Below, piece after piece: positions 15,101 through 35,210 of a stretch of 64,000 nucleotides of DNA. The stretch's first letter is position 1. Each line of letters opens with the position of its first letter. The notes below the pieces were generated by a model. The model was not told where the DNA came from. It saw only the letters and a program-made list of their open reading frames with translations, and made no database searches. Both the position numbers and the translations under genes were made by a program. Origin of the DNA: Ascidiella aspersa (taxonomy: Eukaryota); contig OZ004613.1 in NCBI GenBank assembly GCA_963924565.1, positions 4,588,001 through 4,652,000 on the forward strand, read 5' to 3'.

Positions 15101-15202
15101 TAAGCTGGTTAACAAAGCAAATAAAAGACAACGCGATTTACGATTTCATAATTTTAATTTGCCAACTTCCTTGTTTTTTTTTTTTTGTAGGATATTTTAA
15201 AC

Positions 15203-18200
15203 ATGGCTCTAATGATAACAATGACAGGGGGTTCCCCTTGGGGTTTTAAGATGAAGGGTGGAAAGGATTTTCATCAACCACTCGCAGTCGCCAAGGTATG
15301 GCTAGTCAATTGATGAGATATTAACAGTATACCTTTGTTTTGATTAAACTTTCTTGTAACACATTTGAAACAACTGTGGAAACATAAATTACTCTATTTT
15401 TCGTTAAAAGTTTATATGTATATTTTCTATAAAATTTTAAAGAAATGTTGTTTTTTTTTGTTGGTTTTTTACATTTTTAGCCTTTGAAATTCCTTGCACA
15501 AAAAATATAAACAACCAATAGATATAAATTTGGCCATTTTTTAAATATTTGTGAAATATCATTAAATCAATTTATTGTTTATCAAAATTAAAAAACAAAT
15601 TTATCATTCAATAATTCGGGTTTAATGCGCCTTAATACAGTAAGTCCTATCGATCAGTTTACACTTCTAATTTGTTCATAATGAAACATACACATACAAT
15701 CATATATACTCTCAACTTTACGAGGTTTTCTGGCACGCAACAGTCATGCCTTGGGGGGGAATTATCCAGCCCTTTTAGAAAAAGTTTTGTGACCTCTAGT
15801 GTAATTTGCATCCTCAGGTGACGGCAGGAGGAAAAGCTTCGAGGTCCGGAGTTGTTGAGCGCTACGTGATCGAAAAAGTTAACGGGGAAGATTTCTCCAA
15901 CCTCGGCCACCACGAGGCTCAGAACAAGATTAAGAACGCAGGCTCGACCTTAGTTCTGCATTTGAGGTGAATTTGATTAACTTAGCTAATTTGTGAGAAT
16001 ACTGGTTCGATGTTGTAGTAAGACATAGTAGAAATATTAAAGAAAGTAACTGAAACATTCGTCTACAAAATGTGTATTCTGTAATCAAGCCATTCTGGAG
16101 TCCTTACTGGAAATGCAGATGTTAAAAATGAATAAAGTTATTTGAAATATTCAAAGTGCTACCTATCTTCAGTATGGGCTTGATAAGTCTTTACTTTGTT
16201 GTTGTTACAAACAACATATACACATTGTACAATCTGTTACAAATATGTAGTTAGAATATCAAAGCCTTTCAACGAAAATGAATAAAGTGATATTTGAAAT
16301 GTTCAAAATGCTACCTACTTCTATATGGGTTTTGATATTCTTACTACATACATCTTAAATTTATTTCTTTTTAATATTTATGAATTTAGTTCTTATTAAT
16401 ATTTATAACTTTGCAATATTTCATGGAAAATATTTTCAATCTGTATCACCAACATGTTAATTTCAATTTTGTATTTGCATGAATGGCAAAAAAAAGGTAT
16501 TAATTGAATAACAGTATGTAAATAATTTATATATGTAAATAATTTAATGCTTAGTTTTTCTGCTAATAGCTGTGAACTTAGTATAGCATTGTGATATTGC
16601 TGAAATTTGCATCTTCTCGAACTATAGGGTGATACTTTCAGGTATAATATTTTGTAATGTATATTTGTGCAAAGTAACTTTATTTACAGGTAAAAGTTTT
16701 ATTCAACTACAAAATCAACCAAAAAAAAGTATATAATAAACAGTGTAAGACAAAAATCTCTTCCCATTGAAATGAATTAACCACTTACTCAAATTACTCA
16801 TCTGTTATATTTGAGTGTCCACCAAATGAGGTGTGACTTACACCAGGTCATGGCTGTTTAAATAGTAGGTGTAATCAACACTATTCATTCAATCAGTGTG
16901 TAGAAGAGAGAGAGTGGTACTTAGCTGCCGGCCAGACACAAGCTCAAGTTTGCTTTAGGCACTTTGCAGAGCTCCTTATATGGGCAACAGCAATCTGTTG
17001 TAATTTTCTCCTGATTTCTCATAACAGCCAGTTCGTGCTGGTATTAGTTACGCTGCGCGGTAATCCAGGCCAATATGGCAATTCGGCTGCTTGCATTTCC
17101 TGTGTATACGTCACTTCAAGCCACCGTGTCATTTCTGCCCAATCCCCTTTAAAAGTTTGTTTTGATCACTTCTGCATGTTTGCAAAACGTGCCTCTTGTT
17201 TCTCCCACATTAATTAAATTGAAACACTCTGTTCATCAGCTGTAGCAAATAAATTTCCAACTAGAAAAATGTATACAAATTTGGAAGCAAATGTTAGTTT
17301 TAATTAAAAAAATATTTTTATTGGAATTACTAAAAAAAAACTGTGTATTGTGTTCCAAAATGCTGTCTTATAAGAAAAAAAAAAACTCCTAAAAAGTTAC
17401 TTTTCTGCATATTATAATGTCAATTTTTGTAACAGTGCTTTCATAAACATGTTTTCGTTTCATTTTTTCCATTTTAATGTTTCGTTTATGTTTCTAGTAA
17501 ACCGAAGCCAGCGGGTGCACCACCTGTAGCAAACACAGCGTATATTGATACAACTCCTAAAGTCAGGTACTTATTTTATGTTAACATATTAGTATAAATT
17601 TCTTTCGAGCATAATGGCTTGAGGTTGTGGTTGGACGCCAGTCTGCATTCTGTGGCAAGTGCACACCTGATATTTGTTTTTTAAAGAAATTTGTGTGCTA
17701 ACCCAAATTACACGCCTAGAAATTTCGGGCTGCACACCCGAGATCTTGCCATGCCATGAAATGCAGACTGCGTTGGATTTAGAATTAATATACACAAAGC
17801 TTGGCCATGTTAAATGTGAAATAAGATTCATTCAAAAGGTTCAAAATATGTTACTAACTTCTGTATGAGCTTTGCTAATTGACTTGTTTTACGTAAAGCT
17901 CTTTGAGTTTTTATGCTGTTAGTGAACTTCATAAACACATATAGTTGACTTATCTGTTTTTTCAATGCAAATTGTTTGTGAGTTGTTGTGGTGCATTTGA
18001 AGTTCAAATAGTTTAAAATAATATATTAGCAATTGGATATCATTTTGACAATACTCAAAACTTTAAAATTTGTTTAAAATTCTTATCCCGTTACATCTAA
18101 CAAAATTAAACCTTAACACCAAAAACATTTTAAGATTAAAAAACATGTATTTGTTTTAACACTGCAGAGTTTAGCATCTTAAAATCAAGCAAAAAGTTAA

Positions 18201-21200
18201 AATTGTGTAAATAACTTAATAGGCTTTGAAAAACATTTTTTAACAATAATAACTTAATCTAACCTAAACGCAAATTCTACCCAAACAAATAAAGTTATTT
18301 TAAAATTACAAAAATAATTTGTTTAATTTGCATAGATCGTGGAACAAGAAAAAAGTCTTACTAAACAGTTTCAAGTCCGTTTTTTAGCCAATAAGGAGAA
18401 ATACCAAACAATACAATATAAACCACGTGTGATTTTTGCAGACGCTATGTCATTTCATTGGAATGTCCAGCTTATGAAAGAGTAAATTCATATATGTATG
18501 CCTTAGCCCCAATATAACACTCATAACACACTTCCTGTGGCTAACATGATATTTGCCCTGGAAGTAAATGCCTTGAATCACACTTGTTGTTTTAGTTCAC
18601 TCATTTTGCCCACTTTGAGCGTATAGGCAAAAATTGGGGATATTTACCAGCTATGTAACGGTGTCCTAAGAACTAAACCTGTCATTGTTCGAAAAATGTT
18701 TAAATATAAAACTGGCATAATTCTAAAAAAGTGTCTGTAAGCTAAACATGCTTGCTTTGCATTAAGATAATAGAATTTATTATTTTAAAAAAACCAACCA
18801 GTTAAACTACAATAGTTATAAAGAAATACTATAGTTGATTAAAGTTTAACTGATAAAAACTGATGACTCCTAAGAGAGGTTGCCTTTTTTATAAGTCTGT
18901 GTTTAAACCAACTGGGGAGAGTTATGGCTATATGTATCTTATGAAAATTCTTGGAGATTCTTAGCAAGTTTTTGAATTTTTTTATTTTTTAGTGACACAT
19001 CGTACAAGCCAGGAGAGTCGCGCTACACAAAGTATGACAACCCGGGAGATTGGCAAAAAGATGGACCTATCCAACAGTCGAAAGCCATGAACAAAGCTCT
19101 CGTCAAACCATACAGAGGTGTGTGAAGCAAAAAGTGGGCTTTATTAACCTATAAAAGTCCAAGGTATTTGTCAGTATTTCTTTTTAAGAATATCTGCTGT
19201 TTAAAATTTATTTATACAAGCAATGTTGCCAGTAACTGCTTTCTGTGGGTATTGATATTTGTGTTAGCATGTTTTTTTAACTGTGTGCTGCCACATTGTA
19301 AAAATCAAGGCAATTTAAATAAAGACATAATTGAGTTTTTTAGTGATTAAGAGTGGGTGCATTTGTAAATGTTTTCCAAGGTTTGTGTTTTAAACTTATG
19401 AAATTAGGCTTCAATTAAATGTGATTTAAAAATCGTTTTTAAATGATGCACTTATATTTTTCTAACTGTGATGTCATAATGTGATCAGCGCCCATGGGAA
19501 GTGACGAAACAAAAACAGTGACGATTACTCCGGAGATCAAAGAAATGCTGGAAGAAGAAGAAAGAAGCAAAGAGGCGCCACCCGGTGGAATGAAAGCGAG
19601 TGAAATTAAAACGTGGCCGACACACGAAAACAGGTTTGTAGTTTTTACAAAGTTTAGAAAGTTTATTAAGAAATTTGCAAGCAGTTAAACTAACTAAGTT
19701 TATCAACATTAAACCTAGAACAGTAAGTCTTTTTTAAATTTGTAGATATATAGTTAAGTACTTTATGATGTGTTTTGTGTCCGTTCTTCAATTTTTATTA
19801 TTTTTTTGTACATTTGTTCTTTTGGCTAGTTTTATGAACGTGACAAAGCATCATTAATTTTATATAAATAACCAATTCATGTTGAACTAACAACCAACGG
19901 AAATTCCCATCCTGTGTGTTACAAATTGCATTAGGTTTGATTGTGTTTTACAATTCTACTAAAGACTTTCAGTTGTATTCAAAATTTCATATTAATAATT
20001 ATAATAATTATTATCATTACATCACTACATACCTCACCTATTGTGTATCATACATGAATCGTATCCCTGAAAGAAACTCTTGTAAAATTGTGACTCATAA
20101 TGAGTGACAATTACATATATAACATTTTAACACCTCACCCAAATAACTTTGGTAAATTTTAATTACTTTTTAACAGAATGACATAAAAGTAATTCTTTGA
20201 CATAATAAATCATTTGTTTCCAAAAATATCTAAAATCAGTTATACTATAAACTTGTGTCACTTAAAACTTTGGTATTAGATTTTATTACATGTTATCTCA
20301 TTTTAGTAATAAATTATTTATAGTGAATTGCATCATGTTTCCAGTGTATAGGGAGCTACTCTTACAGCAACCTGAGTGTCTGAGGACTTCTTTGACCAGA
20401 TATTTGAATGCCATTAAAACCAACTAACTAAAAGGCCAATGTCATATTTTATGTTATTGAGGGTTAGGGTAAAATTAGGCTTTTATGCATAATTTTAACC
20501 AGAAAAAAATGTCTAAATTTTGTTTAAAAGAGTTGTTTAAAAGTAATTCTTAAATTGTTAAACTGATCTTAACATAATAATTACTTTCATTTCAGTTGTT
20601 TTTGATGATTCAGTAAATAATTTTTGTTTTACATTAATTAGATTGTAATTTCCAAATTATTTTGCTCTAAAATGTTTTTAAACCATTGCATGGCTTTTAT
20701 AATTAACTTCATTATTCTATTACATCATTTGTGGATGCCACACTTGTTGTTAAGTGCCACTAGGGTGTTATTCACCAGCCAATCAAATATCAAGAACATG
20801 GGACTTTTAACAGTTTGTCTTGGCTGTTTAGTGTGAGATACTTGCCTTGTTTGTTTTACACACATGTCATTCCCCTAGCCACCATGGAATGTACTTTGTT
20901 GTGCCGCTCAGCCAAGAGCTCTCAATGCCCCCGATTGTTTGCATTCCAGAGTCGTTGTTTTGCTATTGTGATGTCACAATACACTGGCAGTGAATGGGCT
21001 CTCAGTGGGCAATTATAGTACTTCTGTGCTTGGGACAAGTTGTAGTAAATCAGCCTGAAACATTGTCATTGTGGGAATTTATTAAAATACATTACAACAT
21101 TCTTGTGGTGAAATTTAACTTCTGAGCATTCCCCTTGGCACTATGACAAACTTAAGTGTAAATTTTTAAGTTTTAAATAAATGGGCTTTGATTGTCTAAG

Positions 21201-24200
21201 TTGAAATATTGAAGCCCCCATATAAAGAAGTAACTTTTGAACTTGTCTTGTAACTCTTTATTCATTTTTAACACGGATAAAGTCATGAAACTATAAAATG
21301 TTCCCTCCTTCATCTGGTCTTTGATGTTCCTACGCTAGCTAGACCTCCAACCATTACGCTATTAAGGCTTTATATTGCTGTAATCGTTCCTAAAAAAAAA
21401 AGATTTTTTTTAAAGTTTTTCTAAAGATATCTTGGTATATATTTAGTACAGTAGGTGTTTATATTCGTTGTGCAAACTTAGTGTTGACATTTGGATTATT
21501 CAACTTTATTTTCTTTTTATTTGGCAAGATAAAAACATTTTTGAACAAACTGGAAAATGGTTTTACCTTTAAATTGGTCTAATACAATTTATATACTTTT
21601 TTTTATATAGTTGTAAGGCACATAAGTAAATTAAAGTAATTTCCTTTTTCCTAATGAACAGGTAATATTAAATAAAACTTAATATATAATTCAGGCCATA
21701 AAGTGTTAGACGTCTGTGCACTAATAAAAAAAACATGATGGTTGTTGTAATATAATTTTTTTTACATTTTTAACATACTATTGATTTTTTGACATGTACA
21801 ACATGGAAAATTAACTTATTACATTTTACTAGACAGCTAGACCGTGTGTTTGATTTAGTAGTTCCACGACAAACGGTGTTTCACCACAACCCCCCGCCCA
21901 AGTTGAGAATGGCGAACGAAGCAAAGCTGTCGGCAACATCAGCAAGTTCTTTCAAGGCTCCGCCGCACCGAGATACGGTGAACCTACTTTTGCAAAGGTA
22001 AGAATTCCCTTAATTACGAATGTCAAAGCCAAAAAGGTCGATTAAATCAACATCATCTTGATAAAGATACTTCGATAACCACTTGTAGAATCATCAGCAT
22101 TGCGTTCCACCTTTTATAAGAGGTTTGCATATATTTTAGTCGCATTAACTGATGATGATCGAATGCAAAAATGTCTTTATCAAGTGTATGTTGATTTACT
22201 CAACATTTTTGTGTAATGACAGTCATATTTTAGATACATAACAGATCTGTACATAGTGTACCTCAGAAATCCACTTGTTTTCAACAAAGTATCTTAAAAG
22301 CTGACTGAAAACTAATGGATCCGATCCGATACTGAAGTCTTTATCAGTGTACACGTACAGGAATTTATTAAAACACGTAAAGGCTTAAACAAGTGGATTC
22401 CTTAATTCGAATGAATCCAATACAAAACAATGTTTTAAACAGAAACAGAATCAGTAAGTTAAACATCATTGCCAAACACTTACAAGTAACTAACAACACG
22501 AGCTCCTACCGCGACAAGGTAGTAACACCAACTGCCGTAAGGACAACTACAATGTCAAGGCACCATGTGCTCAGTGACCTTTGACCGCAAGTCATAGAAT
22601 GATCACACAATTAAATAGGTCATAAAGTACTTACATAAAAATGCGGTTTAGCAAGCTCACTGTTAATCTTAACAAACTCACTGTTATTTTTTTCTTAAAA
22701 AAGTGAATCGCAACGAATAGAAAGATTAACGAACACTCGGCAATGTATAGCAAACGCAAGAATAGAAACATAACAGTCCGTCCCAACACCAACTCATTTA
22801 CTGCGTTGATGTGACACGCACAATAGGGGCCGTCAGTACAGCAATGCACCTTGGCTCCCTCATATACCATCACAGCAACCGATCAACCTCAAGTTGACAG
22901 GACGTAAAGTAAGAACCCGATGATATGTTGACGAACTCATCTGTCGCTCGACGACCACCGTACTTATATCATCTGGGCGAAGCATCCAGCCATTGGATAT
23001 ATTTCCTTTTACCTTCTTGCATTCTTTACACGCGTTGAAGTAATATCGATTCCGCTCATCATTGGAGAGATGTGGACATTCACCACAGTCTTCGTACTGC
23101 GCTGCATCTGTGATTTTACTGATTACACGCACAACTCGTTTAGTGTGCTCTTTACTACGTTCGCTAACCTTAGGTACCACTCTTACTGGGCACGACGATC
23201 TGGCCAAATTGCCAGGGCTTTTCCATTTCTTCCGACCATGGAAGTGGTTGTCACCAGGGTTGTGTCTCCTCGGGATAACACCAACACAGTAGTGACCACT
23301 CGACGACAAAAACAGTTCAACGTCTTTGTTGAACATTGTTGCTCGACCACGAGCAAGATCAAGTACAGCACCTGCTTTCTGGAGTGACGACCTGCTAAGT
23401 AACAGAGGCAAGTCGTTCTTGACGACAGAAACGTCAATGCTGCACAATTTTCCACCAACACAAGCAGGAATTAGGGCTTGGGATTTGGAAATGACTTTCT
23501 TTCCGTCACCAAACTTAAAAACTGTACGCGAAGGAGTGATTTTAACGTCACGTTTATACTTGGAATGTAAATTGAATAAATAATTTCGCAGCCACCGTTC
23601 ACCACAGACAGTTTTCGAACAAGCAGCGTCTATAACTGCCGACTTGTAGGTTTCAGCTACGCAGCTGTTGGTAACACTTGAAAATAGCACAATGTTGACT
23701 TCACCGTCTGAAACATCATTAGTAGACGTATTACAACTTTTGTGAGGACATTTTGCCGCCCAATGCATTTTAGAATCACATATGACGCATCTAGATATTT
23801 TCCCAAACTTATCAATAGGATTGAACTTTCTTTTATCAAAACCTTTTCGATGTATTGGATTACTGGCTACGTAAGATTCTTCTTTGACGTCAATATATTG
23901 TGACAGTTTATCAGAAATTGGGCTTTCAGTAAATATGCGTTTTAGAGCAGACTTCATGGATTCAAACCTAAGATCACTTGCAAATGTCAAAGCCAATTGT
24001 CGTTCTTTAGAAGTTAAATTTGCGCCATCCAACAGTTTAAAAGAAAGAATTGTATCTGGCAATTCCATCTCGTGAAACGTCATCTTATGCGATAAATGTT
24101 CAAACTCTAAAATGTAGTCAATCATCGTCATATCAGTACTTTTATCAAACCTTGTAAACTTGGTGTATGTAGAGTACGCATCATCTACAGACTCCGTCTT

Positions 24201-27200
24201 AAACGCTGCATCGAGTTTTCCAATCAACGTGGACATTCCACTCTCTGCGTGTAGTTCCTCGCGCGTTAATTGCGAAACAGCCTTTTCCGCTTTCGAGTTG
24301 CCCTCTAGGCTCTCCAGTAGAACAATAATTGCTTGTTCTTTCTTGACGACGCCCGTGACAAGCTGCCACATTTGTACCTTGTTTTTCCATGCAGAATAAG
24401 GCAAGTCGTCTTTAAACTTTGGTGGAGATCTCTTTGCACTTGTTGCCATCTTGTGTGTTTACAGCTGGTTTCCTGTAACCATCCTCTGCTACCATGAAAA
24501 CTAATGGATCCGATCCGATACTGAAGTCTTTATCAGTGTACACGTACAGGAATTTATTAAAACACGTAAAGGCTTAAACAAGTGGATTCCTTAATTCGAA
24601 TGAATCCAATACAAAACAATGTTTTAAACAGAAACAGAATCAGTAAGTTAAACATCATTGCCAAACACTTACAAGTAACTAACAACACGAGCTCCTACCG
24701 CGACAAGGTAGTAACACCAACTGCCGTAAGGACAACTACAATGTCAAGGCACCATGTGCTCAGTGACCTTTGACCGCAAGTCATAGAATGATCACACAAT
24801 TAAATAGGTCATAAAGTACTTACATAAAAATGCGGTTTAGCAAGCTCACTGTTAATCTTAACACTGACAATATTTAAAAATTCAAGTATATGTTTGTTTT
24901 TGTGTCAATTTAATTTTGAAAATTGATATTGTTGTTTTCTTTAGGCCTTACCCTTTTAATACATTTCAGTAACAGCTAAGGGGGTTTGAGTTATATTTAA
25001 AGACTTCTTTTTTTATAAATTGTCTTACTATGATTGATTAAAAGCATTGTATTTTGCCCCATGGCCATTTGTGGTCTCTTATGCTTTCAAAAGACATTAG
25101 TTTTGTTTAAATCTGTTTATTTTCAAATTTCGTCGGTGTCATAGTAACATGGTATTTAAGCTTACAACGGTTATCTAAATTTTAGCTATATTTTGCAGTA
25201 TATGGGTTAAAGGTTTTAGACATATTATGTTGTCAAAGTTCATGTAAAACTTTAAAATGCCCACTTCTCTAATTCTGTATGGGCTTTTATATTAGTTTGT
25301 CAAAATGGTAACAATGGCATAATAATTGATTTATTTTAGTTTGTAACGGGGTGACTTGGTAAAAGTAAGAGCCACAACCTATACATTTGCCCTAAATAAA
25401 TGTCACCCCATTCTATACATATACCTTTGCTCAGCTAGGTTCCTTCCAGCAGTTTAACAGCTACGTAATTGGTTAGGCTATTTTCGAGTCACTAGTTATT
25501 TACACTAGAAGATTTGCTAAATAAATGCAATCACTCTGCTGAAGCTCCTAAAATCTATTTACTTATACGATCATCAATGATAGGTTATGAGTTTAATCCG
25601 CAATATTAACAACTTATACCAGAGGTCAGCAACTCGATCCCCACTTAAAATTATTGAGCGTGTTGCCTATTTTACCAACTGGTCCATGAGGCTATTACCC
25701 ACATTTTTGTATAGGTAACTATTAACAATACTTCCATTGTAACTTAGTATGTTAGAATTTTTTTCATTGCAATTCGCACAAATTCGTTTCGTGTTTAAAC
25801 ATGAACATAACATAGAGAGTTTAACGGCCCGCAAATTACCCCAGAAACTATTGATTATAGTGAAAAATTATCGTGTTTAAGTTTTTTATTACACCATTTT
25901 AATAAGAGTATTGATAAAGCCTTATAGACTTCAAGTTAAAACAAATAAATACAATTATTTTTGGGATTTAAAACACTTTCTAAGTGAATGTCATTAAACC
26001 TATTTTCCATTACAAACAAAACTCTATGTCCGCCTCTCATTAACTGTTGGTAGGATTAAAAGCCCGAAAACTACACGTTTTAACTACAACATTGCCAATT
26101 CAAATGTTTTACGGCCCACCAAAAGGTTCTGAGTTTTGGTTTTTCCTGCGTCTAGGAAAATATTGCGACTAAAAACATTATTGGAACGCTTGAGGATGTT
26201 TTAAAGAGAACCTTAACTGTCGTTGCAAAAAAATAAGTTTATCAGCGCATTTCTTTCGAAAACGAAATGAACACACCCAGTCTGTGCTTAATGAAAGGCG
26301 TCTAGAAATGTAAGGATATTATATAATAAGATCACCCGAATAAAATATCAACCGACAAAATCGCTTTTCTAGTGTAAACGAACTTATATATTGACGTTCA
26401 GCACACCGCCGATCTTAAACAGCTGTGGGCTGGTTATTTCTGGCCTATGCATAACCACAATACAACAATACACGTATGATATTTTCACCCAGGAATTGAA
26501 GGACATTTATTCCCCCCTTGGTGACCCTGCTGTACTTGAGATACGACTTGGTTCAAATATGCCCACCCCCACCGTACATTGGTATCACAACAACAGGCCC
26601 GCCAGGGAATCAAAGGACAAAGACATACGCTTCTTAAGCAACGGTAAGTCGTGTTTTATACTTGCTGCTTGAACGCTTTCTAACAAATTGTCGTTGTTCA
26701 GTTGTTATCAATGTTCGTCTTTTTTTAGTAGTAGATGTTTTTATTTTAGGGCACAATTTAAAACTTACACCATAAATTCCTTAGTTTAACTGGAATACCT
26801 TTTAAACCACTGCCGTTTTGACTTAGTTTATTTTTCACACATATAACTTGTTCAACAATAAATAATTGTCGGAAGAACCCTCTTTATAATAATAGATAAT
26901 TGTCGGAAGAACCCTCTTTATAATTAATATAATGCCTGGCAGCAACACTATATTCATATAACTTTTATTATTTTTTTTTAAGTTACAAAGCAACTTAAAC
27001 GTTTCCTAAACTTTCAATTCTCTATTAAAAAAACATTACACCGACTTCTTGAATTTTAATTTTGAAGATGTCATATTAACCAATCAAACTAGAATTAATT
27101 TAGAAGAGTTCATTAAATTCCCAATAAGATGCACACAAAAGTGGACCTCTGAAATTGTCCGACATAAACATTAATACAAAACCTTCTATCAAATCCAAAA

Positions 27201-30200
27201 AAATGTGTTATACTAAAAATCCCTTCTAAAAAGGTGTTACTCTAAATCGTATAACACCATGTTAATTTCATGGAACTTTCAGGTCCCGTCCACACAGTTG
27301 TGCTTGGTGAGCTTTCCAATGAGCTACTGGGAACTTACACCTGCACCATTATGAACAAGTATGGGTCAAAATCTTGCAGATGCAAAGTTGCCATCAAGAA
27401 TGACGGCGAACATGTAAGAAGCCAGTTTTTTTATTTTATTATATTCTGTAATGTGGGATGTATTGTTCCCTTGTACTTAAAATCATATTTATTACCGTGA
27501 CTTTGTAGTTTTATAATAAAAGAGTTAACTTATTTTCAATTTTGTAAATTGTTAATATCATGCCCGAATTATAGTTGTTATATTTCTCCGCAATTTTTTT
27601 TCAATAATATTTATAAACATAAAAATTTACGAAAATTTGAAGCAGCATTTCGCATTTAGCCGTTTTTTTATTAGTAAGGACATCGATGGGCTTTGCTTGT
27701 ATACCGGTACAATTTTAACCCTTACCCTCTTCCTATTAAATTTCTGAACAATGCAAATATCCATTCTGAAATTTTGAAAAGCATTTTTAGCGCTTTCTTA
27801 TCAGCAAAAACTTTTAGTTCTACAGTTTTCGTGTTTTCGAATATCAAAATTAAAACCGGATTTTATGCCCCTATTTTTTTTCTCTTTGCTTTTGGTTTTA
27901 TGAATTAAATGACCAAAGTTCTTTTTCAAATAAAATGACCCCCTATTTTTGTTTTGACTCCCGATTTTTGTTTTTTCTACTCCCGATTTTCCTTTTTCAA
28001 ACACCCCTATATTTTCTTTTTTGTGACCCCCTAATTTTTCTGGCAGCAACCGAAGCCCACCCCCAGCTATGCGCCCCCTGGTGTCAAGGATGCAAAGAAA
28101 GTGATCCCAAGCACTTCGTTGGGTCTCTACTCCGCCCAGAACGCCCAGCAGTCATACCAAGGACAAATTAAGTCGAATTCATCGAGGTTTGTGCGAAGTT
28201 TGAGTCTGTGAAACAAAATAAGGATTTGTTAGTCCATTTCTAGAAAGGCAGTTGTTGTGCTCTTGACATTTTATCATGTTACCGATACCCTATGATTTAG
28301 AATTTAGACAGTAAGGAAAAAAACAAGAAATTGAAACGTTCAAAAAGTATTTTTAGGTTAGTGGGCCAAATTTTACTTTATACATCAGAAGTTTGGTTAC
28401 TTCCAGTTGTTGAGATGTGTTAAATAGATGCAATCACTTCTAAATATATTAACTTGATTCTACCATAAATGATAGGTTATAAGTCGGATCCGGCAAATAT
28501 TGACAACTTAACCCAGGGGTCGGCAAACTCTGCATCTCTTCCAAACTGGGTCATGAGGCTATTCCCCACGTTAGTTACTTCCTGTTGTTAACTTAAAAAT
28601 TTACCCTTTAAGGGTATAATCCCTGCATTGGATCGCCAAATATGTCTGACATTTGTGTGTTAAACTGGTATCAGATGGACGCCCATACGACTCTAGTATC
28701 AGACGTGTACCGATACTACTACTTCGCATCGAGTGTCGTCACCGATCCGATATTATCGGCATCCCTATTACTAGTTGCACAGCAAACGTTTCACAGCTTA
28801 TTTCGGCCGTACAACATTTTTTAATAATTGGGTCGCCGCCCAAAACGGTTGAAAAACACTGATCTATTTCACCTTTAGGAATGCATAAAAACGCTTTTTA
28901 AAGTTAGTAGTAGTTTTGTTAGTTTGCCGGAGAATGTGGGTTCAATAAACGATAGAAAAACACAGTCTCATATAGATTTGTCACCTAACCACCAACTCAC
29001 ACATAACATTAAACTCAATAATTATGTTTGCAAGTTTCACAACTGATCTCCGCAAAGAACAAAAACGAAGTGAAAGGCTTTTTCATATTTGATTTGTGAT
29101 GCTAAACCCGAAATAATCGTGTGGCCATATCTTGATTCAAATTTAGTTTGCTGAAAATCAAACTGTATTTAAAAAGTATTTTTGACTTCTGCTTTTGATA
29201 CATAAATACTTTTGTTTATGTATTGCTTGGCAGAAATCACTTTTAACGCTGTACATTGTGTAACCGTGGCGTGTTCTGAAAACGGTTATGTTGGTTATAT
29301 TACAATGACTCATTCCCCGAATTTAGCAACGCTTGTATATACTTCCAGTAACACAGGAAGTAGTTTTACACCCACGTATTATCTCACAAAGTACAACAAA
29401 GCGTTGCCTTACATGGAAACAACCCTCAAATAAATTATTCCTGTAAATAACATTAACACCATTTTACTTTTCAATAGTATGCAAAGAATTAAGTAAACAT
29501 GGCGTTTGTTGTAAAACACACAATACTTGAAGTCAATGTATTAATTGGGTTTCTTTTTAATTGCAAGTATCTAATCTTATCTTAAGGTTTCCATTTGAAA
29601 TAAGATACTTAAATGCTCGCAAAGAATGAAACATATTTACCGTATACCTTCTAAACCAGTGGTTCTCAACCTTCGTGGCCAATTTCGTTGTACAAAAATT
29701 CTGTGGCCCAAAAAATTTTTATGAAAGAACAAACTATAAAAAGGTTTAGAACAAAATATAGCGAAGCGTATAACAATAAATTTACATTCCTACTCAATTC
29801 CTCCCCAAGCCATTATTCCTGTAAAATTAGGTATAGTGACAAATGAAACTAAATTCTTTAATAAATCCAGCTTTTTTTTAATTGGTCTGTGGCCCATCTA
29901 AAAAGTTTCCATGGCCCACCAATGAGCCATGGCCTACTGGTTGATAACCGCTGTTCTAAGCAAAGTGATCTACAGTTCCAAGCCTTGTACTTATAGTTTA
30001 ATATATTTGACGTGCAACCAGAAAAAATGTTTTTTTTACCATTTTTCTTTTATTAAAACAAAAAATATTTTTGCCCATCCAAATTACACGAAAAGCCGTT
30101 TTAAAAACTTCAGGCACATTATTTTATTCAAAAGAAAAAATATTTAAAACTGTTCGAAATGCAATTTTCAGCATATTTCCGTCAGGCTGAACGCTAATAT

Positions 30201-30956
30201 TTCTTAATACAAATTTCGCAACTCTGTGTTGGAACGCATCTCGGATCCATGTTTTACCGACAATAAAATTTAAAGTTAAAAAACCCGATTCAAAACAGTA
30301 TCAGACATTTTTTATAGGAATATATATTTCACCCATACTGGCATCGTCAGTTCCTTTATTCGAATATTCCTCAAAAAATGTTTCTTTCTGGTTTTACTCT
30401 AGTTTTTGAAGTTTAAGTTTTATTGTTATTATACGCGCCAGCGGAACAGTGATCGACAAGCAGAAACTTGCTGCCAACGGTTTTGGATTCGCTTTTTTGT
30501 AAGCGAAAAAATAATAAGAAAATCCTGGAAATATGTTCAAATATGTTTATGTGATCACAGAAAATCTACTTTCTTACCAAAGCCTATGCAGAAATAGGTA
30601 GCATTTTGAACGTGTTGAAAAAAATGTATTCGAAACGTTCACAAAATGCTACCTACTTCTGTATGAGCTTTGATATTCATTCTACGTCTAACTACAACCT
30701 CCAGCTATTATCTTAGGATTTATTCGAAATGTTCACGAAATACTACCATCCTCTGTATGGGCTTTGATATTCTTATCACAGCTGAAATATAGTTTATATG
30801 TGCATACATGTTTTACCGACAAATAGGGAAGACAGTGGAGAAGAGTCGGAAGTTCTTAAAGCTCTCCGCGAAGAAAGTCCGCACAAGAGCTATCCGCAAA
30901 CTCGATCCATGAAGTACCTGGAGGAAAGTCTTCTTCCGGAGAGCGACGATCTTTGA
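15203..30956 (+). CDS. ALP/Enigma (ZASP/PDLIM-like) protein, PDZ + Ig I-set + ZM + AM motifs, no LIM, 423 aa; exons 15203-15295, 15818-15966, 17498-17566, 18993-19117, 19489-19633, 21859-21997, 26493-26643, 27283-27413, 28047-28186, 30827-30956
   Basis: Ten GT-AG exons join into one 1272-nt frame ending in TGA. The N-terminal PDZ (GGSPWGFKMKGGKDFHQPLAVAK|VTAGGKA...HHEAQNKIK) has the PWGF and HxEAQNKIK signatures of PDLIM/ZASP. Ig I-set: PTFAK|ELKD...PTPTVHWY...GTYTCTIMNKYG. ZM-like: SLGLYSAQNAQQSYQGQ. AM-like: SEVLKALREE...PQTRSMKYLEE. Confidence 0.88.
16974..16983. promoter_or_regulatory. Consensus CArG box (SRF site) in intron 2 of the PDZ gene
   Basis: CCTTATATGG fits CC(A/T)6GG; lies in non-repetitive sequence with a CAGCTG E-box near 17237. 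Confidence 0.45.
22306..22674 (-). repeat. 3' LTR (369 bp)
   Basis: Direct repeat of 24495-24863; contains a minus-strand AATAAA. Confidence 0.95.
22860..24449 (-). CDS. gag: Gag-protease polyprotein (529 aa) of the LTR element
   Basis: Copia-type Gag N-terminus (PPKF...YSAWKNKVQMW), CCHC knuckle CVICDSKMHWAAKC (23789-23748), and aspartic protease AVIDAACSKTVCG...FKFGDG...LPLLLSR. A ~135-aa non-canonical tail follows. Confidence 0.9.
   Translation of the reverse strand: MATSAKRSPPKFKDDLPYSAWKNKVQMWQLVTGVVKKEQAIIVLLESLEGNSKAEKAVSQLTREELHAESGMSTLIGKLDAAFKTESVDDAYSTYTKFTRFDKSTDMTMIDYILEFEHLSHKMTFHEMELPDTILSFKLLDGANLTSKERQLALTFASDLRFESMKSALKRIFTESPISDKLSQYIDVKEESYVASNPIHRKGFDKRKFNPIDKFGKISRCVICDSKMHWAAKCPHKSCNTSTNDVSDGEVNIVLFSSVTNSCVAETYKSAVIDAACSKTVCGERWLRNYLFNLHSKYKRDVKITPSRTVFKFGDGKKVISKSQALIPACVGGKLCSIDVSVVKNDLPLLLSRSSLQKAGAVLDLARGRATMFNKDVELFLSSSGHYCVGVIPRRHNPGDNHFHGRKKWKSPGNLARSSCPVRVVPKVSERSKEHTKRVVRVISKITDAAQYEDCGECPHLSNDERNRYYFNACKECKKVKGNISNGWMLRPDDISTVVVERQMSSSTYHRVLTLRPVNLRLIGCCDGI
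24477..24494 (-). promoter_or_regulatory. Primer binding site for initiator tRNA-Met
   Basis: Minus strand TGGTAGCAGAGGATGGTT directly after the 5' LTR; 18-nt complement of the metazoan tRNA-iMet 3' end AACCATCCTCTGCTACCA. Confidence 0.92.
24495..24863 (-). repeat. 5' LTR (369 bp)
   Basis: Direct repeat of 22306-22674 with TG...CA ends; abuts the PBS. Confidence 0.95.
29657..29953. mobile_element. hAT-type MITE
   Basis: TIRs CAGTGGTTCTCAACC / GGTTGATAACCGCTG; TSD TTCTAAAC/TTCTAAGC. Confidence 0.8.
30316..30355 (-). ncRNA. Minimal Type I hammerhead ribozyme
   Basis: Minus strand AGGAA CUGACGA U GCC aguaug GGU GAAA uaua UA UUCCU: intact core; stem I AGGAA/UUCCU. Confidence 0.75.
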
Positions 30957-33538
30957 AACTTGGAAGCTTGTTGTCCGAAAGGAACCAACATCGCCGCGAA
31001 AATATCAGCATGCGTTAATTACGCGCTGCGCCTAACGGGAGATTTGCTTTTTGTTTCTGTGAAACTTCCATGTAAATATGTAGAGTGTAGCTATTCCCCA
31101 ATTCTGCACACTTGTTTTTACTGTAAATTTACCGCGTTTTGTGACCAAATTTTACTTTTTAAAATGACAGTATATTTTACTCCTTTAAATTTTAAAAATT
31201 AGGATTTTATCAATTTTAATAATTTTTCGTTATATTTTCACTGATTTAAGTGATTTAATTTCTATTTTTCGATGATTTTTTGGTCCCCAGCACTTTGTTT
31301 GACTTCTGTACATTGCCGTTAGTTTTTATAACCCCGCTTGTTTCTGTACATAATGAAATAATGTGTACATAGTGACGTAATCTGTACATTATGACGTAAT
31401 CTGCTGCAGTTGGGGCCTTGTCGTCATGACAACGCCCCCGCTAGATCACAACACAAACATCCTAGACAGTTTCTGTAAACAATAGTATTATTGTTTCTAT
31501 GTAAACTTTTTTATTCTCGACTATAGTTTGTTTCTTCCTATATATGCGTGTTGTTTATCGAAATGTCCGATACTTTAAATTTTGTTCCCATACCGATACC
31601 CGATATTATCGTATCGCCGTTTTATCCGATTTGCGAAAGAAAGCTGAAATTAGTGAAATACCTGGACTTGAAGCATGTAAAGTTCGAAAAAAATGGTTTA
31701 ACTGTATTTTTTTCGCAAATTTAAATTCGTTTTTAAAATTATATTTGTTACAAAAATAGCTTTGGCTAAAAAATGCGTTATTGGATCGCTAAACGCTTTT
31801 ACGAACAAGTATCGGGTATCGGCTTCGATCTGATAATATCGGACAAATCTGTTAATGTTCTACATACGAAAATATTTCTGCTTTTTCCCAAAAACGTCCC
31901 ACGCAACGACGACAAGGCTAAAAAGATGAATGATTTGAAAACGGAAAAGTTTAAAGCTTGGTTGCTGTTACTTTACTAACATTTCTGTTGAACTTTTTGA
32001 TATTTTTCAAAAAGTTAAATTTAGTTTTTTCTACCAAGTTGTTTAATTACGAGCAACTGGAATATTAGCAACTATAGATTATGGTATTATGTCTCTCTAA
32101 TTCAAAATCTTTTCTTTCTAATTTAGAAATGTTATGTATTATTAATTTGGAATCCCGAAATTATAATGTGCAAGTTATCTTACTTTTAGTTATGTTCTTA
32201 TTAATTTGCTTCAGCTAAAAATGCCCCGGTTAGTTAAGAATCGCAGCTACTTCATTTGTGTTATCCCAAATGTGTTAACGAACCATTTAAACTGCCTTCC
32301 CTCTAATTTCAGTGTTAAGCTCGCCAAAGTCACATTCCCAATCACATATTCACGTTTATCTCACAAACCCACTTCACTCTCTGAATCTCTAAGTTCAATT
32401 TATCTCCGTGCAAAACCCGCTTGCCAAACACTTTTCATTCCATCAACGCACATTCTTCCTAACGCGTAAATTCTAATTAACGTCAATTTATTTTTTTCGT
32501 AACAGTGGCCACCAAACACTTTTTTATAAATGACTGGATAACTGTGATAACTGGCCATTGTAGTAATTACGATCGCGGGCCGGTAAAAATTGTTTCGAAC
32601 TTTATTAACAACTTAATTATCGTTATGCGAAACAAATATAAAAAGTACATGCATTAAAACTAAATTATTAGCTTTAATAAATTGTCATTCAGCCTAAAAT
32701 TACATAAAATTTAATTTTGAATTGCATTCGACAACATTCAAAGTGTAGTTTATCTTTATGTTGCACTGAATATGTGAAAAATAGAAATCACCTTGACCCT
32801 TGCAAAATAAATGTCGACCTTAATTCCTGATCAGTAACAGCAAAATAATCTAGCAAAGCTAGAAATTCAGGTCCGACACATTCTGTTAGTTTATCTTTAT
32901 TAAGGAAATGGGCCGCGGGACAGATTAATTGACCCGCGGCCGTTGTTTGGTGATCCCTGTTGTATGGTAACCTATTCAAAAATTGTTGGTTGTTTTATTG
33001 AAACAGCATTTCTTTCAGCCAAATTTCCAATATATTTTTTTTGCATTTTCAGATAGAACGTAAATATTCCAGTTATTTGGGGCAAAAACACTCAATAACA
33101 TAGTCCCCTTCACAGGGAGAGTGCAATTCTGTTTTCTGTTTCAGTTTTTTTTTGTTGCATCATATTCCAAGTAGTCTAAACATAAATCTATTAAATCGTA
33201 CGATTATGTAAAAAAATCTGAAAAAACAACGTAATATTTCCATTTTTAAAACAAACACTTTTTCGAAAATTTTACATTTATTTCTTTTTTTCCATGTTTT
33301 AAAGTTGTTTTTCGTTTCAATTTTAGCGAAATAATGATTAGCTCGATTATGACAAAGTGCCTTACTTGTTTTATCGTTCAAGTTTCTGCGTTATCTTATG
33401 CTTATCATGTAACCAGTTGTACATAACAGTTTCATATGCACTATTTCCAATAGCTCTCAAGTGTATAATATATATAGACTCGTTGGAAAATTGACTGTGC
33501 TGTTTTCGCAATTTAAATGTTATAATTGTGTGTAATCT

Positions 33539-34699: not shown

Positions 34700-35210
34700 C
34701 AGTGTTGTAAACAAGTCATTTTGAAATAACTTGAGTCCCAGTCAAGTCATTTGAAAAATAACTTAAGTCCAAGTCAAGTCTTTTGCAAAAATAACAAGTC
34801 AAGTCCCAGTCCAAGTCATCGGTTGCGCAAGTTAAGTCCCAGTCAAGTCATAATTAGAACAAGTCAATTTCAAGTCATGTCATTGACATAAAAGTAAATT
34901 GTTAAACTATTGAAATTGGTAAAATTGTCCGATTATAAGCAACATTTTAACTAAAAAACTAACACAAACGCAATATACAGCACTTAAAGTGTTTAATGTG
35001 CAAAACTTAAAATAAATTTTAATGAAAAACACTTAATTTAATCCCAAGTTATTTGACATAATGACTTAAGTCCAAGTCAAGTCATTTGTCCAAAAGACTT
35101 AATCAAGTCAAGTCATTTTGGTCAAAAGACTTAAGTCAAGTCAAGTCGTTTGAAAACAGTGACTTAAGTGCACTTAAGTCAAGTCAATGACTTAAGTCAT
35201 TACAACACTG
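34700..35210. mobile_element. hAT-type MITE with many subterminal AAGTC repeats
   Basis: TIRs CAGTGTTGTAA / TTACAACACTG; perfect TSD ACGGATAT. Partial relatives at about 5510-5638 and 40707-40830. Confidence 0.9.

Follow-up and report, generated by a model that had tools for sequence, protein, structure and literature searches.

We analyzed a gene in a 64,000-nucleotide (nt) stretch of Ascidiella aspersa DNA (assembly GCA_963924565.1, contig OZ004613.1, positions 4,588,001 to 4,652,000), called here the window; positions below are those of the window unless stated otherwise. The gene is real, expressed, spliced and conserved. Judging from the sequence, its product is probably a LIM-less ALP/Enigma (Zasp) paralogue that carries an immunoglobulin (Ig) domain and a tail of the PDZ-binding type, and that would likely act as a multivalent alpha-actinin adaptor at muscle Z-discs or dense bodies.

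The gene lies on the + strand and has 10 coding exons separated by GT-AG introns with matching phases. The exons form a single open reading frame from the ATG at 15203 to the TGA at 30956. With the transcript-backed acceptor of exon 6, the 1,272 nt of coding sequence give a protein of 423 amino acids (aa) with no internal stops. From the N- to the C-terminus the protein consists of a PDZ domain (aa 1-81), a disordered linker, an I-set Ig domain (about aa 235-329), a ZM-like motif, an AM-like motif and the residues ESDDL, which are followed by the stop. An initial annotation of the window had described a PDZ domain with a complete I-set domain before ZM and a stop just after AM. This order was confirmed by the gene structure and by Pfam, with ZM and AM being motif-like only. 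The earlier gene model was upheld as a gene, and only the start of exon 6 was moved, to 21859, where the transcript takes the first AG of a tandem acceptor.

A transcript-like contig of 2,192 nt (run X2, depth 26.4) joined exons 1-2 through 8-9, which makes 8 joints among those listed; rare isoforms may exist beyond them. Thus the joining of PDZ and Ig exons in RNA, proposed earlier as a check, was found in this contig. A contig of equal length and depth contained exon 7 at record position 733 and exon 10 at record position 1155, as the gene model predicts. From the length, depth and coordinates we infer that both sightings are one contig running through all ten exons. It extends about 900 nt beyond the stop codon. 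Raw RNA reads (run X4, approximately 6% of the run) backed five of the eight listed joints on the sense-consistent side, with 9, 6, 2, 6 and 2 reads. Among the variants listed between contig and window, 10 codons differed and 9 of the differences were silent; the tenth gave Gly, as in the orthologues. This residue is at position 15860: the window codes there for Arg46, within the PDZ, and Gly stands in the transcript contig as well as in the aligned orthologues. It is either an allele or a base error.

Exon 1 (15191..15295) contains 12 nt of 5' untranslated region (UTR) and the first part of the PDZ (aa 1-31), and is followed by a phase-0 intron; the transcript contig starts at 15191 and contains the joint to exon 2. 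Exon 2 (15818..15966) encodes the remaining ALP/Enigma-type PDZ (aa 32-80; Pfam PDZ, 25.3 bits), and its joint to exon 3 was found in the contig and in 9 RNA reads. Exon 3 (17498..17566) encodes a proline-rich linker (aa 81-103), with both joints in the contig and in 9 and 6 RNA reads. The linker continues in exon 4 (18993..19117, aa 104-145; contig piece and alignment), which has a conserved QS-P/K-A/S-M/F stretch, and in exon 5 (19489..19633, aa 146-193; contig piece), which encodes a conserved acidic helix with an invariant Glu in the alignment. Exon 6 (21859..21997; contig joints, alignment and helix test) encodes an amphipathic helix that is conserved (about 21929-21952); from 21983 on it encodes the start of the Ig. 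The first half of the I-set domain (aa 241-290) is in exon 7 (26493..26643; Pfam I-set and Ig_3, contig piece, joint to exon 8 in 6 RNA reads), and the second half (aa 291-334) is in exon 8 (27283..27413; Pfam I-set, joints). Exon 9 (28047..28186) was assigned by the ZM profile to a degenerate ZM motif (about 28095-28169), in which GLYS is kept. The coding part of exon 10 (30827..30956; contig piece at the expected record position) contains an AM-like two-helix motif (about 30840-30932), the ESDDL tail (30939-30953) and the stop. The 3' UTR (30957..32810, + strand, end approximate) has AATAAA at 32676 and 32806; it is covered by the contig to 31855, by a second contig at 31929-32787 and by sense-side RNA reads.

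At the 5' end, the first base of the transcript contig directly follows a poly-T/AG acceptor (15150-15191) and lies 12 nt ahead of the ATG. This points to trans-splicing at the acceptor or to alternative exons farther upstream. We also observed a few sense RNA reads in intron 5 (19810-20290), including 5 molecules with common ends (19920 and 20262), which may be duplicates of a single molecule or a repeat.

The PDZ domain groups with those of the ALP/Enigma family. When PDZ structures were searched by sequence, the best 15 matches were all PDLIM1-7 domains, and several of the PDLIM structures among the matches were solved with alpha-actinin or myotilin tails. Identity to vertebrate ALP/ZASP PDZs was 34-46%. 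In a PDZ tree of 24 rows, the gene grouped with the PDLIM PDZs against three multi-PDZ outgroups (support 100/99). Nine Ig-bearing PDZs formed one clade (98/97) among the ALP/Enigma PDZs, with an unsupported sister group, and the window gene was placed close to Phallusia (94/92). In two full-length orthologues, the PDZ (42-46 bits) and a complete I-set domain (positions 1-90 of 90, 40-45 bits) both exceeded the Pfam cut-offs. In a structure model of the orthologue from Phallusia, folding is confined to PDZ and Ig, with a predicted local distance difference test score (pLDDT) of mostly 75-90 (about 75-85 for the Ig); 205 of 424 residues were below 50, and a helix was predicted at 159-170, in the exon 5 region.

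At least three further ALP/Enigma genes are present in the genome, namely a PDZ-3LIM gene on contig C9 and LIM-less PDZ-ZM-AM genes on C3 (L005, G000 C3 29.81-29.82 Mb; two ZM motifs) and C8 (L008-L009, G000 C8 10.73-10.75 Mb). The latter two have an AM-like last exon as the window gene has, but neither an Ig nor an ESxDL tail, and no Ig match was found in the stretches of the C3, C8 and C9 paralogues that were searched. A phase-0 intron within the PDZ is common to the gene and all three paralogues, and the AM-like last coding exon lies behind a phase-2 intron in the gene, C3 and C8. The ZM of the gene reached a score of 49 with the first ZM of C3, on a par with the Styela orthologue (48) and higher than with canonical ZMs (8-29). 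Because of the PDZ clade, the common PDZ intron, the phase of the AM exon and the likeness of the ZM to that of C3, we read the frame of the gene as ALP/Enigma and the Ig as the added part.

A ZM profile built from vertebrates only gave 12.2 bits in the window, compared with a best score of 6.4 in 1,400 shuffles; with scores of at least 0 bits, it placed the motif at the same location in 8 of 14 sequences. The vertebrate AM profile gave 11.4-12.7 bits in four orthologue sequences, and the AM-like match was always C-terminal. The conserved stretch of exon 4 has a loose likeness to the second half of the AM/Enigma motif. As an Enigma-type QSRSF motif it was rejected with a vertebrate motif profile, since the window gave no match and the best orthologue reached 3.0 bits versus 3.9 in shuffles.

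We did not observe any LIM domain near the gene (at 4.6 Mb of its contig) among 48 LIM matches from a genome search in which 60 candidates were scored; the nearest on the contig were at 1.39 and 31.06 Mb. Over 3,525 frames of the window, a profile of 20 vertebrate LIM domains reached no more than 10.2 bits, compared with 18-48 bits for four true LIM exons of the C9 paralogue. This agrees with the initial annotation, in which no LIM exons were found downstream. The absence of LIM is not distinctive, as the two Ig-less paralogues described above are also LIM-less, and so are short Ciona PDZ-ZM genes reported by te Velthuis et al. 2007 (PMC1781342). The four Ciona ALP/Enigma PDZs of that report include counterparts of C3, C8 and C9 and, in the accessible text, none of this gene. 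The protein has the N-terminal ALP/Enigma-type PDZ and lacks a C-terminal LIM, and therefore it is not a canonical PDZ-LIM protein. As a PDZ and ZM gene without LIM exons it fits the LIM-less Zasp group (Drosophila Zasp66 and Zasp67, Ciona ZASP-like genes), with which it has in common the N-terminal ALP/Enigma PDZ, the ZM and the lack of LIM; it departs from that group's lack of a further folded domain by its complete I-set. The vertebrate ALP subfamily (PDLIM1-4) and short ZASP/LDB3 have the same PDZ-ZM-AM order, but the ALP members end in one LIM, the matches had no Ig, and the ZM of our gene is degenerate.

The Ig domain matched sarcomeric I-sets at 18-27% identity with no favourite among titin I21 and M4, telokin, MLCK, APEG-1, palladin Ig2 and myotilin. 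Against single domains of the PDB, palladin Ig2 (26.0 bits), APEG-1 (25.9 bits) and titin scored similarly, and Foldseek put titin domains first. In the ESM Atlas, the whole protein gave no usable feature match and the C-terminal half gave generic I-set clusters under 0.9. The Ig is single-copy in the genome, and the next match is in an MLCK-like multi-Ig gene. As a donor, the best match (40.6 bits) was in this 192-kb MLCK-like locus, with no common intron evident by eye; the search for a donor covered loci other than the titin locus on the same contig. The coding sequence of the Ig is split over three exons, the first residues being in exon 6 and exons 7-8 forming a phase 0-0 pair. Shuffled Ig modules are usually phase 1-1. 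Exon shuffling, which the initial annotation inferred as the origin of the protein, is no more than a possible origin, as the Ig is spread over three exons and no donor stands out.

Two further elements, the C-terminal tail and a helix ahead of the Ig, had been overlooked earlier. The protein ends with ESDDL, and the pattern E/D-S-D/E-D/E-L was found in 8 of 10 orthologues. By sequence match, the tail is of the acidic C-terminal PDZ-binding type of myotilin ESEEL, and alpha-actinin of the Ascidiella genome ends with ESDL. Since its tail resembles the ESEEL and ESDL ligands, the protein seems to carry both an ALP/Enigma PDZ and a likely ligand for such a PDZ. We take an acidic PDZ-binding tail to be a general pattern of the myotilin/palladin/myopalladin family. 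The PDZ of ZASP binds the ESEEL of myotilin and also the end of alpha-actinin and that of FATZ (PMC5479843, PMC8163081), and the title of PDB entry 4ydp names the pairing of the myotilin tail with the ZASP PDZ. The amphipathic helix is situated 15-27 residues ahead of the Ig and was conserved in 10 of 11 sequences examined. Its amphipathicity is equal to that of the actinin neck, and it has hydrophobic residues at positions 4 and 8 of the 1-4-5-8 pattern. Helices of the 1-4-5-8 type in titin, myotilin and palladin bind actinin EF3-4 (bioRxiv 2020.09.25.310029).

Orthologues over the whole length were found in Ciona (XP_002127748), Phallusia (CAB3264640), Clavelina (XP_076819190) and Styela (XP_039273110). 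Identities to the gene over the full length were 37-71% overall (Phallusia 71%, Clavelina 57%, Ciona 57%, Styela 38%). Their database names are automatic (palladin-like, uncharacterized, PDZ and LIM domain protein 5-like). A search with the Ig exon retrieved two of eight candidates, from Phallusia and Clavelina, both with PDZ and I-set. The Phallusia protein gave 18 matches, 7 of them with PDZ and I-set, and a profile gave 20 matches, again 7 with both; none of the PDLIM-type matches (9 and 11, respectively) had an I-set. Both of these searches need shared 5-residue words and scored a part of the candidates. An exhaustive search with the 49-aa PDZ exon gave 23 matches, and among the 20 scanned there was one new PDZ and I-set protein, Styela-like. 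The other PDZ and I-set matches were plankton contigs, probably from pelagic tunicates; those tested were in the same PDZ clade. Among the named non-tunicate matches of the word-based, profile and 49-aa exhaustive searches, we did not observe any protein with this layout. By sequence, then, the layout is ascidian-wide and old. The initial annotation had proposed a lineage-specific new combination; in these searches it turned up in ascidians and plankton relatives only, in line with that proposal, but it is not local, being present in at least four ascidian genera and in databases as palladin-like.

The layout is apparently undescribed, though the sequences are already in public databases. We found no description of the gene in the literature, including by orthologue accessions and locus terms; Ciona expression tables under other gene identifiers could carry it. 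In the accessible text of a 2022 review of the ALP/Enigma family (PMC9751615), immunoglobulin has 0 occurrences; part of the AM is described there as family-wide. According to the literature, the ZM is specific to muscle and linked to Z-discs (PMC9751615, PMC6910826). Tunicate Z-discs are reported to be simpler than those of vertebrates, in a study in which the trees of PDLIM, LDB3, myotilin, myopalladin and palladin were left without resolution (PMC5888912; for further background see PMC8002584).

If the protein is an alpha-actinin adaptor, its PDZ would grip the ESDL end of alpha-actinin, as the family suggests. The ZM would help to target the protein and could be held by the LIM domains of the PDZ-3LIM paralogue without recruiting more copies, as in the blocking Zasps of the fly; in the growing/blocking model, LIM-less Zasps block Z-disc growth through their ZM (PMC6910826). 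The ESDDL tail may bind ALP/Enigma PDZs, its own or that of a paralogue, leading to chaining or folding back. The Ig would provide an additional, rigid site for docking, and actinin EF3-4 may be bound by the helix that precedes it. Such a gene could have originated by duplication of a PDZ-ZM-AM gene, which then, before the divergence of the ascidian lineages sampled, gained the Ig from some multi-Ig gene of the sarcomere. In a bolder form of this proposal, tunicates fused a ZASP/ALP PDZ-ZM adaptor with myotilin-like parts (the EF3-4-binding helix, the Ig and the ESDDL tail). The product would be a multi-site alpha-actinin clamp that polymerizes head-to-tail via its own PDZ and serves in LIM-independent building or sizing of Z-discs; we see this version as possible, though on the unlikely side.

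Several observations weigh against the adaptor reading. In RNA, the raw X4 data, a few reads deep, contained no joint for exons 1-2, 4-5 and 6-7 (three of the eight listed). YNxP is missing from the ZM, and Pfam PF15936 remained below its cut-off on two full-length orthologues (15.3 and 12.7 bits versus 28.7). The vertebrate AM profile reached 6.1 bits on the window, which is below the best shuffle (7.5). Two of the 10 orthologues, which are related plankton sequences, end with QSDDN or QSDDY and have no final Leu. In the helix before the Ig, a small residue, Gly or Ser, occupies position 5 of the 1-4-5-8 pattern. The likeness of this helix to the actinin neck, noticed after the fact, is weak: 113 of 15,045 background 14-mers match the score of the real neck (top 0.8%), and the neck itself ranks 53rd of 14,177 in its own locus. 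Moreover, ALP/Enigma proteins act outside muscle too (PMC9751615).

The last point leads to a different reading, that of a non-muscle actin adaptor in stress fibres, junctions, notochord or epidermis, like PDLIM1/2/4 and palladin. Members of the family bind many non-muscle partners (PMC9751615), and depth was low in the one RNA run, with few reads per exon. This depth says little, because the tissue of the run is not on record; the muscle-specific, Z-disc-tied ZM (PMC6910826, PMC9751615) and the intracellular sarcomeric type of the Ig make a non-muscle role unlikely. The palladin-like database label raises another alternative, a derived gene of the myotilin/palladin family that captured a PDZ. 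Palladin Ig2 was among the top single-domain PDB matches (26 bits), a palladin cluster was the top structure match in both Atlas searches, with template modelling (TM) scores of 0.36 and 0.57 that are below the bar for naming, and the tail and the helix before the Ig are features resembling myotilin. We consider such an origin quite unlikely. Myotilin, palladin and myopalladin indeed have the same intracellular I-set, an acidic tail and possibly a 1-4-5-8 helix, but they have two to five Ig domains in tandem, while our proteins have one I-set stretch each and also possess PDZ, ZM and AM. Nor does the Ig stand nearer to that family than to titin or MLCK; domains of titin, APEG-1, telokin and MLCK match it equally well (18-27% identity). 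Further, ZM and AM follow the Ig and the tail is inside the AM exon, which makes the gene ALP/Enigma-like at its two ends.

We also considered whether the PDZ and Ig layout is older and wider than tunicates and was missed by the searches. The two large ones used 5-residue words and scored part of the candidates, the exhaustive query had only 49 aa and gave 23 matches, six orthologue clusters had no species name, and amphioxus and echinoderm genomes were outside the searches. However, all four named PDZ and I-set matches were ascidian, an I-set was found in none of the 9 and 11 PDLIM-type matches, the tested plankton sequences were in the same PDZ clade, and immunoglobulin does not appear in the accessible text of the 2022 review; a wider distribution is thus quite improbable. 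Finally, two neighbouring genes or a mis-assembly could have been read as one protein, as a retroelement lies within an intron that splits the Ig and the raw reads lacked that joint. The transcript contig joins across this intron and the layout recurs in four ascidian proteins that were annotated independently, and we regard this explanation as practically refuted.

ALP/Enigma proteins have been described with PDZ, ZM, AM and LIM only, and a member that has an Ig and a likely PDZ ligand of its own, kept across ascidians, is a new arrangement in the vertebrates' sister group. In Ciona, the gene makes it possible to ask directly whether a single fused adaptor does the work of ZASP plus myotilin in vertebrates, and whether LIM-less Zasps can self-assemble. 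If it is only a Zasp of the blocking type with a spare Ig, the gene matters mainly for annotation.

The retroelement mentioned above is a long terminal repeat (LTR) element on the - strand in intron 6 (22306..24863), which is spliced out and is not part of the protein. Its TG..CA LTRs of 369 nt are identical and the target duplication is 5 nt long, and it is therefore a recent insertion. Its open reading frame (22860-24458) gives one frame of 532 aa with, by eye, a gag-type zinc knuckle and a protease-like motif, in which reverse transcriptase and integrase were not seen. The element is multi-copy and covered by RNA reads. Twelve other long frames of the window had no Pfam match, and Rfam gave nothing. 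Short tandem arrays occupy the introns and the flank together with a high-copy family of short interspersed repeats (34712-35169, 16266-16347, 17815-17877, 30613-30779). Elsewhere in the genome, a titin-like gene with frames of up to 5,899 aa lies at 7.45-7.98 Mb of C9 (G000, L099-L116), near a multi-Ig gene on the opposite strand with an MLCK-type kinase exon. The alpha-actinin gene (L015, G000 C6 21054222-21056185) has two similar adjacent exons for the end of the actin-binding domain, which are probably mutually exclusive.

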